64,000 nt of DNA, from contig OZ245838.1 of the NCBI GenBank assembly GCA_965228735.1, forward strand, positions 5,632,001 to 5,696,000. The letters run 5' to 3'. Positions 1-5,100 of the stretch are shown one piece after another. The DNA is from Planctomycetota bacterium. GTDB lineage: Bacteria; Planctomycetota; UBA1135; UBA2386. The position numbers and the translations under genes were made by a program. Below the pieces are notes generated by a model, which searched no databases, was not told the origin of the DNA, and saw only the letters and a program-made list of their open reading frames with translations. Each line of letters starts with the position of its first letter. Positions within the stretch are counted from its first letter, which is position 1.

Positions 1-362
1 CCGACGTAGGTCGACACCGCGACCACCGTCACCGCCGAGGCGGCGAGGATGAACTTCGGCGCGATCATGAGCGCGGCTGCGGCCGCGACGGCACGCTGCG
101 CGCGGACCCACCAGCGTGGCTGACCGGTCGGCGGCGTCGCGTTCTCGTTGTCCGTCTCTGCTGCGGTCGCGGCGAGTGCGGCCTGGACGAACTCTTCGAT
201 CTGCGCGGCTGGCAGCGGTTCGTCGACGACGTCGTCGTCGGAGTCCTCGTCGAGCTGGGCGAGCATGCGCTCGACCTCGGCGAACTCCTCGGCTTCCGCG
301 GCGACCGCGACGTCGTGGCGCTCGCGCAACCAGCTCCAGAACTCTTCGTCCTTCAGTTCCAT
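1..362 (-). CDS. Putative anti-sigma factor or membrane partner of the adjacent ECF (runs off window start)
   Basis: ATG at 362 overlaps the ECF stop (ATGGAACTGA). Translates MELKDEEFWSWLRERHD..., an acidic N-terminus followed by a hydrophobic stretch (AVAAAAALMIAPKFILAASAVTVVAV). Absent from the ORF track because it is open-ended. Confidence 0.6.
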   Translation of the reverse strand, partial: MELKDEEFWSWLRERHDVAVAAEAEEFAEVERMLAQLDEDSDDDVVDEPLPAAQIEEFVQAALAATAAETDNENATPPTGQPRWWVRAQRAVAAAAALMIAPKFILAASAVTVVAVSTYV

Positions 363-1003
363 GAGGGCTGTCCTGTGGTCTCTCCCGGTCCGATGCCCTG
401 CTCGACGAGCAGGCCCTTCAGGGCCTTGCGCGCCATCGAGCGTGAGGCATAGATCGAGTTCTTGGTGGTCTTGAAGCGGTGCGCGAGTTCGCCGGCGTCG
501 GCGACGTCGCCCGTGAGCAGGTCCGCTTCGATGATGTTGCGTTGCAGGCGCGGCAGCTTCTTGATGCAGTTCCGCAGCACCTCGAGGAACCGGCTCGGCG
601 CCGGAGCCTCGTCCGTGTCGGGGTCGTCCGCCACCGCCGTGGCGGCCGCCGTGCCGAGCTCTTCGACCGCTTCGCCGCGGGTCTCCCAGCGCCGGCGTTT
701 GCGGTCGCGCAGGATCTCCACGCCGGCGTTGCGCGCGATCACGTAGAACCAGGCCCGCAGCGAGCCCTTCGCAGGGTCGTACGAGTCGGCGGCATTCCAG
801 GCCTTGTAGGTCGCTTTGCTCATTGCGTCGTCGAGTTCTGCTGCGTTGAGGGAGTCGCCGAAGCTACGGACGAGTCCGCCACGAACGCGGGCGCCATGCT
901 TGGTCAGGAGTTGCTGCAACCCACCCGATTTCCGCTCCACGATGAGGCGGATGATCTCCGCGTCACCGGAGGGCGCGGGGGGGTTGCTGGTCGAGGGGGA
1001 CAT
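353..1003 (-). CDS. ECF-family RNA polymerase sigma factor
   Basis: Region 2-like DDAMSKATYKAW...YDPAKGSLRAWFYVIARN; region 4-like LPRLQRNII...LAHRFKTTKNSIYASRSMARKAL. Confidence 0.85.
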   Translation of the reverse strand: MSPSTSNPPAPSGDAEIIRLIVERKSGGLQQLLTKHGARVRGGLVRSFGDSLNAAELDDAMSKATYKAWNAADSYDPAKGSLRAWFYVIARNAGVEILRDRKRRRWETRGEAVEELGTAAATAVADDPDTDEAPAPSRFLEVLRNCIKKLPRLQRNIIEADLLTGDVADAGELAHRFKTTKNSIYASRSMARKALKGLLVEQGIGPGETTGQPSWN

Positions 1004-1237
1004 CGCGAAGACCGCCGTGGTCTTCTCCTGGAAGGGTTACGCGTGGGCCTTAACGAAGGATGCCACACGCGGCGCGCCCGGCTCGGAACGGGACCGAAAT
1101 GGCGCGTCGTAACCGCATTTTTGGCGGGGACTTACCCATGCCGTCGCCAGATCCGTTCCGGTTGCGGGAAATCCAGATCGCTCTCTTCAGCGTAAACCGC
1201 GCGGATGCCGATCCTGCGATTACGTGAGGTGCGCGCC

Positions 1238-1804
1238 ATGATGGGACACATCAACAATCTGGTCGTCGAGATGGTCCGCGAATCGCTCGGGGCGGACGCG
1301 GTCGAGAAGTTGTTCGCGGAGTCGGGGCTGGAGCACCGGCGCTTTCAGCCCGAGGTCATCTACCCCGAAGAGGATTTCCAGGCGCTGTTCGCCGGGGCCC
1401 AAGCGGTCTTCGGTGTCGATGCTGCCGCGGCGGAGGAGGCGTTCGCCGGCTACTTCATGAAGCGGTCGCCCGAGATGTTCCCCGCGATCTTCGAGCAGGC
1501 GGGCTCGGCGCGCGGACTCATCGAGAAGATCCCGACGATCCACCGGAACTTCCCGGCGTCGGCGTCACAGGGCGATTATCGCGACAAGGTGGAGATCACC
1601 GAGTCGACGCCAGAGCGGATCACGCTGCGCTACATGTCGCCGAACCAACTGTGCGCCACGCTGTGTCACGTCGGCGGCATCTGTCTCGACTTCTTCCATG
1701 AGAAGGGCAAGGTCTACCATCGCTGCTGCGCGAAAGAGGGCGCCGAGTACTGCGAGATCGTCGTCGAGTTCCACGGCAAGAAGGAGCCGGTGGCGTCCGA
1801 ATGA
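1238..1804 (+). CDS. H-NOX (heme NO-binding) domain protein
   Basis: MMG start, Y-P-E-E-D motif, proximal His in PTIHRNF, YMSPN at the YxSxR position, C-terminal LC...HRCC...EYC; directly upstream of a histidine kinase. Confidence 0.85.
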   Translation: MMGHINNLVVEMVRESLGADAVEKLFAESGLEHRRFQPEVIYPEEDFQALFAGAQAVFGVDAAAAEEAFAGYFMKRSPEMFPAIFEQAGSARGLIEKIPTIHRNFPASASQGDYRDKVEITESTPERITLRYMSPNQLCATLCHVGGICLDFFHEKGKVYHRCCAKEGAEYCEIVVEFHGKKEPVASE

Positions 1805-2157
1805 CCCCTGAAGGTCAGGTTCACGGCAGCTCGCCCGCGTACTCGGAGGAGTTCGTGCGGGATCAGGTCCGTCACATCGAGGAGTGTCTGGCCCGTGCGT
1901 TGGCCGGAGACTTCGAGGCCGTCCGGCTGCCGGAGGGCGACACGATGTGGGGGAATCTCGCGATGCACGTCAACGTGGTCATCCACGCGACGCGCGCCGC
2001 ATTGACTCGAGCCGAACGGTTCGAGAAGGAGGCTGCCGCACTGCGGGCGGTATCGCAACCGGACGGAGCGGCCATGGCCGTGCGTTCGATTCGGCGGCCG
2101 GCGCGCGCTGCACGGCCCCAGGACCTCGTGGTGGACGATGAGCGAACGACCCGCTGA
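1801..2157 (+). CDS. Small protein homologous to the N-terminal input domain of the downstream kinase (HAMP-like helical domain)
   Basis: ATGA overlap with H-NOX; shares MWGNLAMHVNVVI.A.R.A..RAE with the next ORF. Confidence 0.75.
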   Translation: MTPEGQVHGSSPAYSEEFVRDQVRHIEECLARALAGDFEAVRLPEGDTMWGNLAMHVNVVIHATRAALTRAERFEKEAAALRAVSQPDGAAMAVRSIRRPARAARPQDLVVDDERTTR

Positions 2158-3187
2158 TCCCACCGCCGAGCCGCAGACCGCAGGTTCGGACGTCGGGTAC
2201 ACGCACGATTCCGTGCGGAGCAACATCCGGCAGATCGAGTCCGGGCTCACGAAGGTCCTGTTCGGCGACTACACGGCCGTCGTCAGCCTGGACGACGCGA
2301 ATCCGATGTGGGGCAACCTCGCGATGCACGTGAACGTCGTGATCAACGCGGCGCGCAACGCGATCGCGCGGGCGGAGGCCTCCGAGCGCGAGGCCGCGCT
2401 CGCCCGCGATCGCGCGATCGCAGCGGCCGAGGCCGAATCCAAGTTCCTCACGAACGTCACGCACGAGCTGCGCACGCCGATGGCGTCGATCAAGGCATCG
2501 GCCGAGATCCTGCGCGACTACGGCAAGGGTGACGCCGCGGTGTTCGATGAGTTCCTCGACGTGATGCTCACCGACAGCGATCGCCTCACCCGGCTCATCG
2601 AGAACGTGCTGACCCTGGGCAAGCTGCAGACCGACGAGACGGAGTGGCAGGTCGCCGAGACGCAGCTCGCCGATCTCTGCACCGAGATCGTGGAGTCGAT
2701 GCGCCAGCCTGCGCTCGGGCTCGGACAACACGTTCACCTGACGGTCGGCACCGACCTGCCGCGCTCCTTCCTCGATGCGGAGAGCATCAAGCAGGTCCTC
2801 GTGAACCTGCTGAGCAACGCGATGAAGTTCGGGCCCTCCGAGGCCGTGATCGAGGTCGAGGTCGGCTACGACGCGGCGACCGATCAGCTCGTCGTCGCGG
2901 TGATCGACCGCGGCCCCGGCGTCGCGGAGGCGGAACGCGAGGTGATCTTCCAGCGCTTCGAGCAGGCGACCGAGGACATCCTCACGCAGAAGCCGAACGG
3001 GACGGGCCTCGGCCTCGCGATCGCGAAGGAGATCGTCGATCGCCACGGTGGCCACATCGGAGTCGAGTCGGCGGTCGAGCAGGGCTCCCGCTTCTGGTTC
3101 ACGCTGCCCGTGCTGCGCGAGGCCGCGGCGTTCGATCGCATCCGCGAAGCGACGCCGTCGGAACCAGCAGCGCCATCGGCGTCCTGA
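2138..3187 (+). CDS. Soluble sensor histidine kinase (HisKA + HATPase)
   Basis: H-box THELRTPMASI, N-box NLLSNAMKF, G1 DRGPG, F-box IFQRFEQ, G2 GTGLGLAI; no TM segment seen. Confidence 0.95.
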   Translation: MSERPADPTAEPQTAGSDVGYTHDSVRSNIRQIESGLTKVLFGDYTAVVSLDDANPMWGNLAMHVNVVINAARNAIARAEASEREAALARDRAIAAAEAESKFLTNVTHELRTPMASIKASAEILRDYGKGDAAVFDEFLDVMLTDSDRLTRLIENVLTLGKLQTDETEWQVAETQLADLCTEIVESMRQPALGLGQHVHLTVGTDLPRSFLDAESIKQVLVNLLSNAMKFGPSEAVIEVEVGYDAATDQLVVAVIDRGPGVAEAEREVIFQRFEQATEDILTQKPNGTGLGLAIAKEIVDRHGGHIGVESAVEQGSRFWFTLPVLREAAAFDRIREATPSEPAAPSAS

Positions 3188-3253
3188 GTCGAAGCGATCG
3201 ACCGCCATCACCGGCATGTTCACGGTCATGGCGTCCGCCTCGATCGTTCGGCA

Positions 3254-3376
3254 CACCCGTACGGTACCTCACCCGTACGGTACCTGGTTCATGCTGCCGG
3301 CCGCGAGCCCGTTTCCTCGCGGGTGGCGCCTCGACGGCCGGCAGCATGAACCAGGTACCGTACGGCAAGGTACCGA
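3254..3376. repeat. REP/MITE-like element: perfect 31-bp inverted repeat with a 16-bp tandem direct repeat
   Basis: ccgtacggtacctggttcatgctgccggccg (3273-3303) and its exact reverse complement (3335-3365); cacccgtacggtacct at 3254-3269 and 3270-3285. Confidence 0.85.
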
Positions 3377-3785
3377 CGAGAACTCGTGGGTGACGATCGA
3401 CGGCTATCGGATGCAATCGGTCGCCGGCGGCGGCCACTGGGGCGGCGGCATGTTCATCAGCAGCCGCGACCACGCCCGCTTCGGTCTCCTCATGCTGCGC
3501 GATGGGCGCTGGGGCGACCGGCAACTGCTGTCGCAGGAGTGGCTCGCGCGGGCCCGGACACCGACGCCTCAGCAACGAACCTACGGCTACATGAACTGGT
3601 TCCTCAACGCCGACGCCGACCACAAGCGGTTCGCGTCGGCGCCGGTCGGCGACGTCTTCTTCCTCGGAGCCGGGACCAACATGATCTGGCTCTGCCCGTC
3701 GCGCGACATGGTCGTCGTCGTGCGCTGGCTCGAGGGCCGGCACGTCGACGCGTTCATCGGCAAAGTGCTCAGCGCGTTCGCGTGA
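3375..3785 (+). pseudogene. 3' fragment of a beta-lactamase-like serine hydrolase (5'-truncated)
   Basis: ENSWVTIDG.RMQSVAGGGHWGGGMFISSRDHARFGLLMLRDGRWGDRQLLSQEW...YGYMNW...GAGTNMIWLCPSRDMVVVVRW is typical of the C-terminal half. No SxxK-bearing N-terminus; begins right after the inverted repeat. Confidence 0.75.
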
Positions 3786-4506
3786 ACCGCGGCAGCGGCA
3801 GCAGCATCGGCACGCGGTCGCGGTAGTCGGTGTAGTCGCTGCCGTGGGCCGCGACGAGGCTGCGTTCTTCGATCTGCAGCGCGACGAGCGTGAACGTCGT
3901 GAACGTGAGGCCGAACACGAGACCGCCGTAGGTCATCGTGGGGATCGTCCAGAACGCGGTGAGGAAGCCGAGCATCAGCGGGTGCCGGACGAGGCTGTAG
4001 AGGCCTCGGGCCTTGAACGCGGGTGAGCGTGGCTCCTGACCGCGGAACGCCGCGAGCGTCTGCTTGACGCCGAACAGCTCGAAGTGGTCGATCTGGAACG
4101 ACGACAGCACGACGGTGAGCCAGCCGAGTGCGGAGACCGTCCACATGACCGTGGCCCACGGGCCGTCGATCTGCCAGACCACTTCCGGCAGCGGTCGCCA
4201 CTGCCAGTACATCAGCGCCAGCACGAGGCCGGTCACGATGACGAACGTGCTGCGCTCGATCGGCGCGGGAATGATGCGCGTCCACCGGCGCTTGAACCAG
4301 GCGCGCGCCATGATCCCGTGCTGAATGCCGAACACGAGGATCAGGCCGATGTTGGTCAGCACGGCTTCGAGCATCGGTGACTCGGGGCCACCGCGCGCCA
4401 CGGAGGTGGGCACGAAGACGTCGCTCGTGAAGCCGATGAGGTAGAGGAACGAGGCGTGGAACGCGGCGTAGGCCAGCAGGCCGTAGAACAGGTAGAAGTA
4501 GCGCAT
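3769..4506 (-). CDS. mddA: Methanethiol S-methyltransferase-like protein (MddA/ICMT family membrane methyltransferase)
   Basis: QHGIMAR.WFKR.WTRIIP..IERSTFV, WQWRP, IDHFELFGVKQ, LY..VRHPLMLGF..AFW..P.MT, EER.L...HG..Y..YR.RVPMLLP. Confidence 0.8.
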   Translation of the reverse strand: MRYFYLFYGLLAYAAFHASFLYLIGFTSDVFVPTSVARGGPESPMLEAVLTNIGLILVFGIQHGIMARAWFKRRWTRIIPAPIERSTFVIVTGLVLALMYWQWRPLPEVVWQIDGPWATVMWTVSALGWLTVVLSSFQIDHFELFGVKQTLAAFRGQEPRSPAFKARGLYSLVRHPLMLGFLTAFWTIPTMTYGGLVFGLTFTTFTLVALQIEERSLVAAHGSDYTDYRDRVPMLLPLPRFTRTR

Positions 4507-4534
4507 GATCGGATCTCGGTCGGACATCCGATTC

Positions 4535-4584: not shown

Positions 4585-5100
4585 CTATTCGGCCGACAGG
4601 CGCTGGTAGAGCCACGCGCGGGCGAACGCCCACTCGCGTCGGACCGTCCGCTCCGAGATGTTCATCGTCGAAGCCGTCGCGACCTCGTCGAGGCCGGCGA
4701 AGAACCGCAGGCGCACGATCTCGGCCGCGCGCGCGTTGACGTCGGCGAGCGCCTGGATCGCCTCGTCGATCGCCATGACCTCGCCGAGGTCCGCCGTCGC
4801 GGCGACCTCGGCCACGTCGAGGGACAGTCGGTTGAGGTCAGGGCCGCCGCGCTTCTTCGCGCCGCGTTTCCTGGCGTGGTCGATGAGGATGCGCCGCATC
4901 GCCTCCGCGGCCATGCCGAAGAAGCGCCCTGGATCCTCGCGCACGCCTTCGAGCCGGTCGCGCATCGCCAGCCAGGCCTCGTTGACGAGAGCCGTCGCCT
5001 GCAGCGTGTGATCGCCGCGCTCACCGGCCATCTGGCGGCGGGCCAGGGCGCGCAACTTGTCGTGCACCTCGGAGAGTTGGGATCGTTCGGTCTCGCTCAC
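4585..5100 (-). CDS. ECF sigma factor, TIGR02999 type
   Basis: Signature HTLQATALVNEAWL, AMRRILIDHARKRGAKKRGG, VRLRFFAGL...ISERTVRREWAFARAWL. Confidence 0.95.
   Translation of the reverse strand: MSETERSQLSEVHDKLRALARRQMAGERGDHTLQATALVNEAWLAMRDRLEGVREDPGRFFGMAAEAMRRILIDHARKRGAKKRGGPDLNRLSLDVAEVAATADLGEVMAIDEAIQALADVNARAAEIVRLRFFAGLDEVATASTMNISERTVRREWAFARAWLYQRLSAE

Follow-up and report, generated by a model that had tools for sequence, protein, structure and literature searches.

This study provided evidence that the small gene lying between an H-NOX gene and a histidine kinase gene in this planctomycete is a conserved gene in its own right, which arose once and evolves under purifying selection. 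It is a real third component, with a narrow distribution, of an H-NOX/HAMP-like signalling subfamily that is apparently undescribed. Its product resembles the N-terminal module of the neighbouring kinase, which is predicted to be a divergent, membrane-free HAMP-like input module, and we give a probability of roughly 0.4 to the reading that the small protein is a catalytically empty decoy, which would titrate H-NOX and raise the switching threshold of the kinase. The window, that is, the whole stretch of DNA analysed, is 64,000 nucleotides long, and the features that concern us are the following:

1238..1804, + strand: H-NOX of a divergent subtype, 188 aa, beginning MMGH (PF07700, E 5.6e-16)
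1801..2157, + strand: free-standing protein, predicted HAMP-like, 118 aa (alignment to the kinase, orthologue comparison)
1846..2055, + strand: predicted HAMP-like core of the small protein (AlphaFold2, fold searches, hhalign)
2077..2154, + strand: C-terminal tail of the small protein, low-confidence and probably disordered (alignment, pLDDT<50)
2138..3187, + strand: soluble histidine kinase, 349 aa (HisKA with HELRT, and HATPase_c; Pfam)
353..1003, - strand: sigma-70/ECF-type sigma factor, divergent from H-NOX (PF04542)
1..362, - strand: 270-aa gene behind the sigma factor, 5' part only, putative anti-sigma partner, leaving the window

The locus and its H-NOX

The three genes overlap, as the preliminary description had stated: H-NOX and the small gene share 4 nt (ATGA), and the small gene and the kinase share 20 nt, such that the last 20 nt of the tail, stop included, cover the kinase start. 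The kinase is composed of the N-terminal module (about 2201-2413), a linker helix, HisKA (PF00512, E 1e-16) and HATPase_c (PF02518, E 5.9e-27), and no receiver gene adjoins it at the locus. In each of the four sequencing runs compared, the region 1100-3299 was recovered as a single contig piece that carried 0-1 substitutions and was free of indels; the source of the assembly itself may be among these runs.

Concerning the surroundings, the sigma gene is syntenic in the congeners G001 and G002 and in L010, and is divergent from H-NOX in all three; Pfam recognised only region 2 of its product, and the DNA just upstream of its start is conserved. In the search for a conserved promoter between the sigma gene and H-NOX, the sigma-start stretch alone aligned in four genomes, and no common element was found near H-NOX. 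The 270-aa partner has an acidic N-terminus and a hydrophobic segment, and a similar gene occurs in L010. Behind the kinase, a near-perfect palindrome of ~110 nt (3255-3380, predicted fold -100 kcal/mol, MITE/REP-like) belongs to a genome-wide repeat family with 133 blastn hits, both orientations counted. It is followed at about 3386-3785 (+) by the 3' fragment alone of a gene labelled by eye as serine-hydrolase/beta-lactamase-like; G001 and G002 carry the 5' end of an apparently similar gene after the kinase, and here the palindromic repeat sits where the 5' part is missing. Two genes on the - strand converge on the locus, namely an NnrU/methyltransferase-like membrane protein (3769-4527; PF07298, E 5.5e-5, below the cut-off) and a second ECF sigma factor (4585-5100; PF07638).

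The H-NOX assignment is clear (PF07700, 59.3 bits against a cut-off of 25.5), and this protein is the single HNOB match of the genome. An H-NOX gene lies directly upstream of the module gene in all 14 genomes with a genuine member, ten of the order (E<=1e-8) and four from elsewhere in the phylum (G180, G182, G124 and G208); three of the 14 carry the triad and eleven have two genes. The closest two-gene case is G687, whose proteins are those of L010; there the H-NOX gene directly overlaps that of the kinase. At E<=1e-3, 14 of 339 order genomes matched the module profile, the four weaker matches being three canonical HAMPs and one partial match; the class-level search covered the identical 339 genomes. 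Several candidates were set aside as members: G284, G394 and G053 gave no match with the larger profile, L058, L059, L061 and L067-L073 are canonical post-membrane HAMPs with no H-NOX in their loci, and L060 is partial. H-NOX-like matches occur in 113 of the 339 order genomes, and the module was found near none of the other H-NOX genes in 20 further loci, at least one of which is cut by a contig end. As the profile was built from the member loci and the kin are not independent, the pairing is given as a strong association and carries no statistic.

The YxSxR motif of H-NOX is its heme-propionate motif. At this position all 14 module-linked H-NOX proteins read YxSx[NH] (YMSPN here); the Arg is kept in 20 of 20 other H-NOX proteins examined from the order, and Shewanella reads YSSPR. 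The proximal His102, equivalent by position to His103 of S. oneidensis, is invariant in the 14. The Zn-site residues C139/H161/C164/C172 of this H-NOX match those of Shewanella (2kil/4u9b) exactly, residue for residue over 126-179; among the relatives, position 161 is mostly Glu, and the two C-terminal Zn Cys are absent in L023 and L024. Since this subtype is devoid of the YxSxR Arg, it may sense NO or the oxidation of Zn-site thiols. Heme-free H-NOX of V. cholerae is reported to become a kinase inhibitor when the corresponding site is oxidised (PMC7108781). As a separate observation, the ordinary YxSxR H-NOX genes of this order (L087-L103) are often followed by proteins opening with a shared charged helix (such as LERRLxREKxRxxxLExxIEDKTRELF, by eye), possibly another unannotated H-NOX docking module.

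A predicted HAMP-like module

The small ORF had been described as a mirror of the kinase N-terminus with an identical core encoded by synonymous differences, and both statements were borne out. The local alignment score was 191, compared with 33.9±5.3 for shuffles (maximum 64, n=2000); the alignment spans 81 residues, of which 42 are identical, with differing codons at 19 of these, and within MWGNLAMHVNVVI different codons encode 5 of the 13 residues. The small ORF has no Pfam match at E<=1, and its product contains neither a catalytic domain nor a transmembrane segment (maximum 19-residue hydropathy 0.81). With 118 aa, a single interaction domain and a larger homologue, it has the size and domain composition of a microProtein.

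AlphaFold2 models, scored as monomers, predict a helix, a 13-residue connector and a second helix for the module (pLDDT 92; H5-23 / H37-72 of the model), corresponding in the small protein to a helix at 16-34, a 13-residue connector and a helix at 48-85 that runs on as a short coiled coil. The features by which a HAMP is recognised were found, namely two amphipathic helices with a connector of ~13-14 residues, GD[LFY] after helix 1 and G-x-L...N in helix 2, and the motif columns align with those of 14 HAMPs of the same genome. Foldseek ranked the Af1503 HAMP first and second with weak E values (0.57 and 0.88), and VIA placed the sensor kinase 4i5s on top (Z 8.6), followed by four Af1503/HAMP construct chains (Z 7.1-7.7), with rmsd 2.8-2.9 over 65-73 residues, these Z values being modest for a helical fold. 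In hhalign, the module against the 14 own-genome HAMPs gave P 0.0013 over 52 columns, compared with 0.14 for the reversed profile and 0.057 for the best of 30 shuffles. The next-best genome matches of the module profile were ordinary post-membrane HAMPs, and the best ESM Atlas matches (up to 0.87) fell in HAMP-labelled clusters, which we take as leads only.

Inversely, PF00672 (HAMP) matched neither copy at E<=1 or <=10, the locus is absent from the genome-wide PF00672 matches (n=22), and a PDB sequence search with the domain profile returned one chance match (Lsm, E 0.62), and none in a repeat search. As no single test was decisive, each lying below the usual confidence mark of its tool, and as PF00672 was not matched, the label "HAMP-like" is used. 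Whereas HAMPs usually come after a transmembrane helix or another input domain, the module begins no later than residue 56 in 83 of 84 proteins, and the maximum 19-residue hydropathy was 1.66 among the 39 module proteins scanned.

A profile of the six free-standing copies found 35 representatives among 1.84 billion sequences, and a wider profile found at least 54 longer proteins. The module is found at the start of HisKA and HisKA_3 kinases, some of which also contain PAS, GAF and receiver domains, and it has no name in Pfam. In an Acidobacteriaceae record it also opens a protein of 811 aa that is named as a sigma54-interacting regulator (P0061), and it is present in a protein of a Hyphomonadaceae record (P0072); therefore, the family reaches beyond Planctomycetota. 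In G124 and G208 (L023:6366 onward and L024:6040 onward), the module precedes a GSGGMGEV motif, typical of Ser/Thr kinases (by eye).

Origin of the free-standing copy

Among 61 related genomes, matches were found solely in this genome and in its congeners G001 and G002, two in each. Both congeners have H-NOX, the small gene and the kinase in the identical order; the 20-nt overlap recurs in each, as does the divergent sigma gene. The triad, whose conservation had been proposed as a check, is thus intact in all three genomes of the genus that were searched, though narrow, being present in 3 of the 339 genomes of the order; the two-gene form occurs in 7 of 339. A scan of metagenome contigs gave 92 pattern matches, none of which was confirmed.

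Six free-standing copies were recognised: that of this genome, a 98% strain variant, P0002, P0003, P0005 and P0037. As P0005 and P0037 are known from contigs of <1 kb only, their gene context is unseen. Eight further short candidates (P0006, P0013, P0021, P0027, P0032, P0033, P0067 and P0081) keep kinase-type residues, appear fragment-like and were rejected. The five small copies tested form one clade in two trees (support 97/90 and 95/93). Pairing the small copy with the kinase of its own genome was rejected (p-AU 0.0024); for a duplication inside the genus, the test gave neither support nor rejection (p-AU 0.34).

The preliminary description had derived purifying selection from the synonymous differences between the two copies. 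Such differences between paralogues prove no selection by themselves, and it is the comparison of orthologues that supports the claim. The dN/dS of the small core was 0.28, 0.35 and 0.17 across dS of about 0.8-1.0, a rough dS given the high GC. The kinase core gave 0.13-0.15, so that the small core evolves about twice as fast, with ratios comparable to those of the sigma factor (0.29-0.42) and of H-NOX (0.21-0.30). Free drift was seen at the start of the small ORF, in its first 16 codons (pN/pS 0.85-1.09), and the tail is poorly constrained (pN/pS 0.47-1.17 over 19 codons). A tandem duplication of the H-NOX 3' end as the source of the tail was rejected, since no DNA alignment exceeded the codon-shuffled controls (best z 2.9, not above the highest shuffle value).

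These comparisons bear on the possibility that the small gene is what remains of a second, slowly decaying kinase gene, or a spacer whose frame stays open for translational coupling only, which we consider improbable. Consistent with decay, the copy evolves faster than that of the kinase, its signature residues are gone, its branch is long (0.62-0.66 for this genome) and its distribution is narrow; further, a full kinase, P0008, groups with the small clade in one tree (94/78, unstarred) and not in the other. Against it, the frame is open, the core keeps its low dN/dS while the N-terminal 16 codons drift, and the six copies share 30 invariant columns.

Putative function and known systems

In the decoy reading, the kinase module would be a HAMP-type helical dimer, as predicted, and the likely docking site of H-NOX. 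The separate H-NOX would press sideways on the second helix of the module, as PAS does on the HAMP of Aer, and thereby switch the kinase, most likely off by analogy with characterised H-NOX/kinase pairs. The small protein would offer the same surface without an output and bind H-NOX first, setting a threshold and sharpening the response, and the overlapping genes would probably couple its amount to those of its partners. Since it keeps the putative docking surface and has no output, we infer that it titrates activated H-NOX.

The residue comparison (79 partner sequences and six small copies, kinase numbering) is consistent with this decoy reading in the exposed stripe of the second helix. V67 is present in 75/79 partners and 6/6 small copies, R73 in 76/79 and 6/6, and N70 in 69/79 and 4/6, being His in this genome; M63 is found in all six small copies and in each of the five distant loci, yet in only 23/79 partners. 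The corresponding positions of canonical HAMPs are variable and mostly polar. M63, V67, N70 and R73 stand at +4, +8, +11 and +14 from the DExG glycine, which are, in our own mapping, the offsets of R244, Q248, L251 and R254 of Aer. These four Aer residues are reported to contact the PAS sensor (bioRxiv 2026.05.25.727702).

Five signature residues are lost in all six small copies, namely T38 (kept by 69/79 partners), V40 (69/79), F42 (67/79), V48 (63/79) and N74 (71/79). V48 corresponds to a one-residue connector deletion common to the small copies, as is V40A, and these losses may have retuned affinity or state preference. The four remotest H-NOX-linked members likewise lack T38, F42 and N74, which therefore look subtype-specific; N66 and R73 persist everywhere. 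If the five residues form the docking patch, however, the small protein would bind H-NOX poorly, which counts against the decoy, as do the His that replaces N70 in this genome, the faster evolution of the small core, the weakness of each HAMP test by itself and the fact that 11 of the 14 member genomes manage without the small gene. The predicted complex of two small-protein cores with H-NOX scored 0.18 (mark 0.32) and is counted neither for nor against any reading.

A dominant-negative action is somewhat unlikely. As such a microProtein, the small protein would form a mixed dimer with a kinase subunit through the HAMP bundle and coiled coil and, having no complete DHp, leave it dead or uncoupled. 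All small copies preserve the bundle core (I33, L37, G43, G59, N66 and I69) and the ARxAxxRAExxExEAA coiled coil, the overlap of 20 nt with the start of the kinase, present in all three genomes, suits coupled synthesis, and the concept is known in eukaryotes (PMC9638782). In addition, T38 and F42 were lost at non-core positions, and the lost residues as a set fit a mixed dimer and cut against a decoy. However, a partner of 85 residues would need to compete successfully with a homodimer that the linker helix and DHp help to hold together, the connector deletion and V40A may disfavour mixed bundles, and the exposed V67 and R73 are kept although dimerisation alone has no need of them.

It is unlikely that the small protein is a bridging adaptor or relay, whose HAMP surface binds H-NOX while the tail motif and a new Phe contact the kinase or another output and pass the signal on. 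The lost residues would also fit a relay via the tail, and the Phe in question, F74 (FE[RK]EAA), is specific to the small clade and present in 6/6. The tail motif RP..P[RQ]x[FL]V is loosely kept in five of six copies (RP..P[RQ][DN][FL]V in a stricter form), and synonymous codon changes in the tail region favour the small frame (14, against 6 and 6 in the other frames). On the other hand, the tail is weakly constrained as described above, has low model confidence and is truncated in P0037, and the kinase has a complete module of its own.

The least probable origin, a very remote one in our view, is that the ORF is the first repeat of a two-HAMP kinase joined by programmed frameshifting, or the frameshifted remnant named as a refutation in the preliminary description: in this genome the kinase frame stays open for about 40 codons before its ATG, but a split two-repeat kinase is disfavoured as none of 84 family proteins has two modules, a remnant is unlikely for the same reason and because recent within-genome duplication was rejected, synonymous changes are fewer in the kinase frame upstream than in the small frame, the stop and overlap stand at the same place in 3/3 genomes, and the sequencing runs show no indel. 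Fusion of H-NOX to the module was likewise found in 0/84 family proteins.

Several parts of this picture are already known singly: H-NOX/kinase pairs, lateral sensor-HAMP contacts, output-less HAMP docking surfaces and microProteins. In the H-NOX/HnoK pairs, NO-bound or oxidised H-NOX is reported to inhibit autophosphorylation (PMC7108781, PMC12329717). As in the pairs of Shewanella oneidensis, Vibrio cholerae and Caulobacter, a stand-alone H-NOX adjoins the kinase gene, with overlap in Caulobacter, and the proximal His and the C139/H161/C164/C172 Zn site are shared; unlike them, the present locus has a HAMP-like kinase input by prediction, an Arg-less YxSxR and a third gene copying the input module. 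The word "HAMP" did not occur in the H-NOX papers searched for it. In E. coli Aer, a cytoplasmic redox sensor likewise acts on the AS-2 helix and connector of a HAMP, with contacts that map to the conserved stripe, although Aer is one membrane-anchored chain driving chemotaxis, whereas here the proteins are separate and soluble and their contact is putative.

The Cache_heme-HAMP receptor/Ser/Thr kinase system of Pseudomonas azotoformans resembles the present one in combining NO/heme signalling with an output-less HAMP that docks an operon partner (bioRxiv 2026.05.25.727664); there, however, the HAMP lies below a membrane receptor and binds the kinase, and here it is a soluble paralogue of the kinase's own input. 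The small protein also resembles microProteins such as Id and LITTLE ZIPPER in being a single domain of <20 kDa that arose by duplication and domain loss with the interaction domain kept, although the examples given in PMC9638782 are eukaryotic or viral and mostly directed against transcription factors, and heterodimer inhibition is a proposal here. In the literature searched, which covered few subscription papers, we found neither an H-NOX paired with a soluble HAMP-like input nor a free-standing duplicate of such an input.

Taken more broadly, and tentatively, the loci may represent a hitherto undescribed class of sensor that acts in trans on HAMP domains. In it, a thiol/Zn-redox H-NOX that lacks the Arg and is possibly independent of heme would dock laterally on a soluble plug-in HAMP serving many outputs (His kinases, likely a Ser/Thr kinase and a sigma54 activator), and a microProtein made from that HAMP in one planctomycete lineage would set the threshold. 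A 2022 review reported no high-resolution structure of H-NOX with a signalling partner (PMC8738867), and if this trans-acting reading is true, such a structure should be within reach through the small soluble H-NOX-HAMP pair. The module has about 60 residues, and in every locus seen it accompanies one H-NOX subtype; as a free soluble copy of it exists in nature, H-NOX docking is directly testable. The predicted module would extend HAMP biology to a membrane-free input role, missed by Pfam in >70 proteins, and should the small protein act by sequestering the sensor or by poisoning the kinase, bacterial two-component signalling would have a decoy derived from a paralogue.
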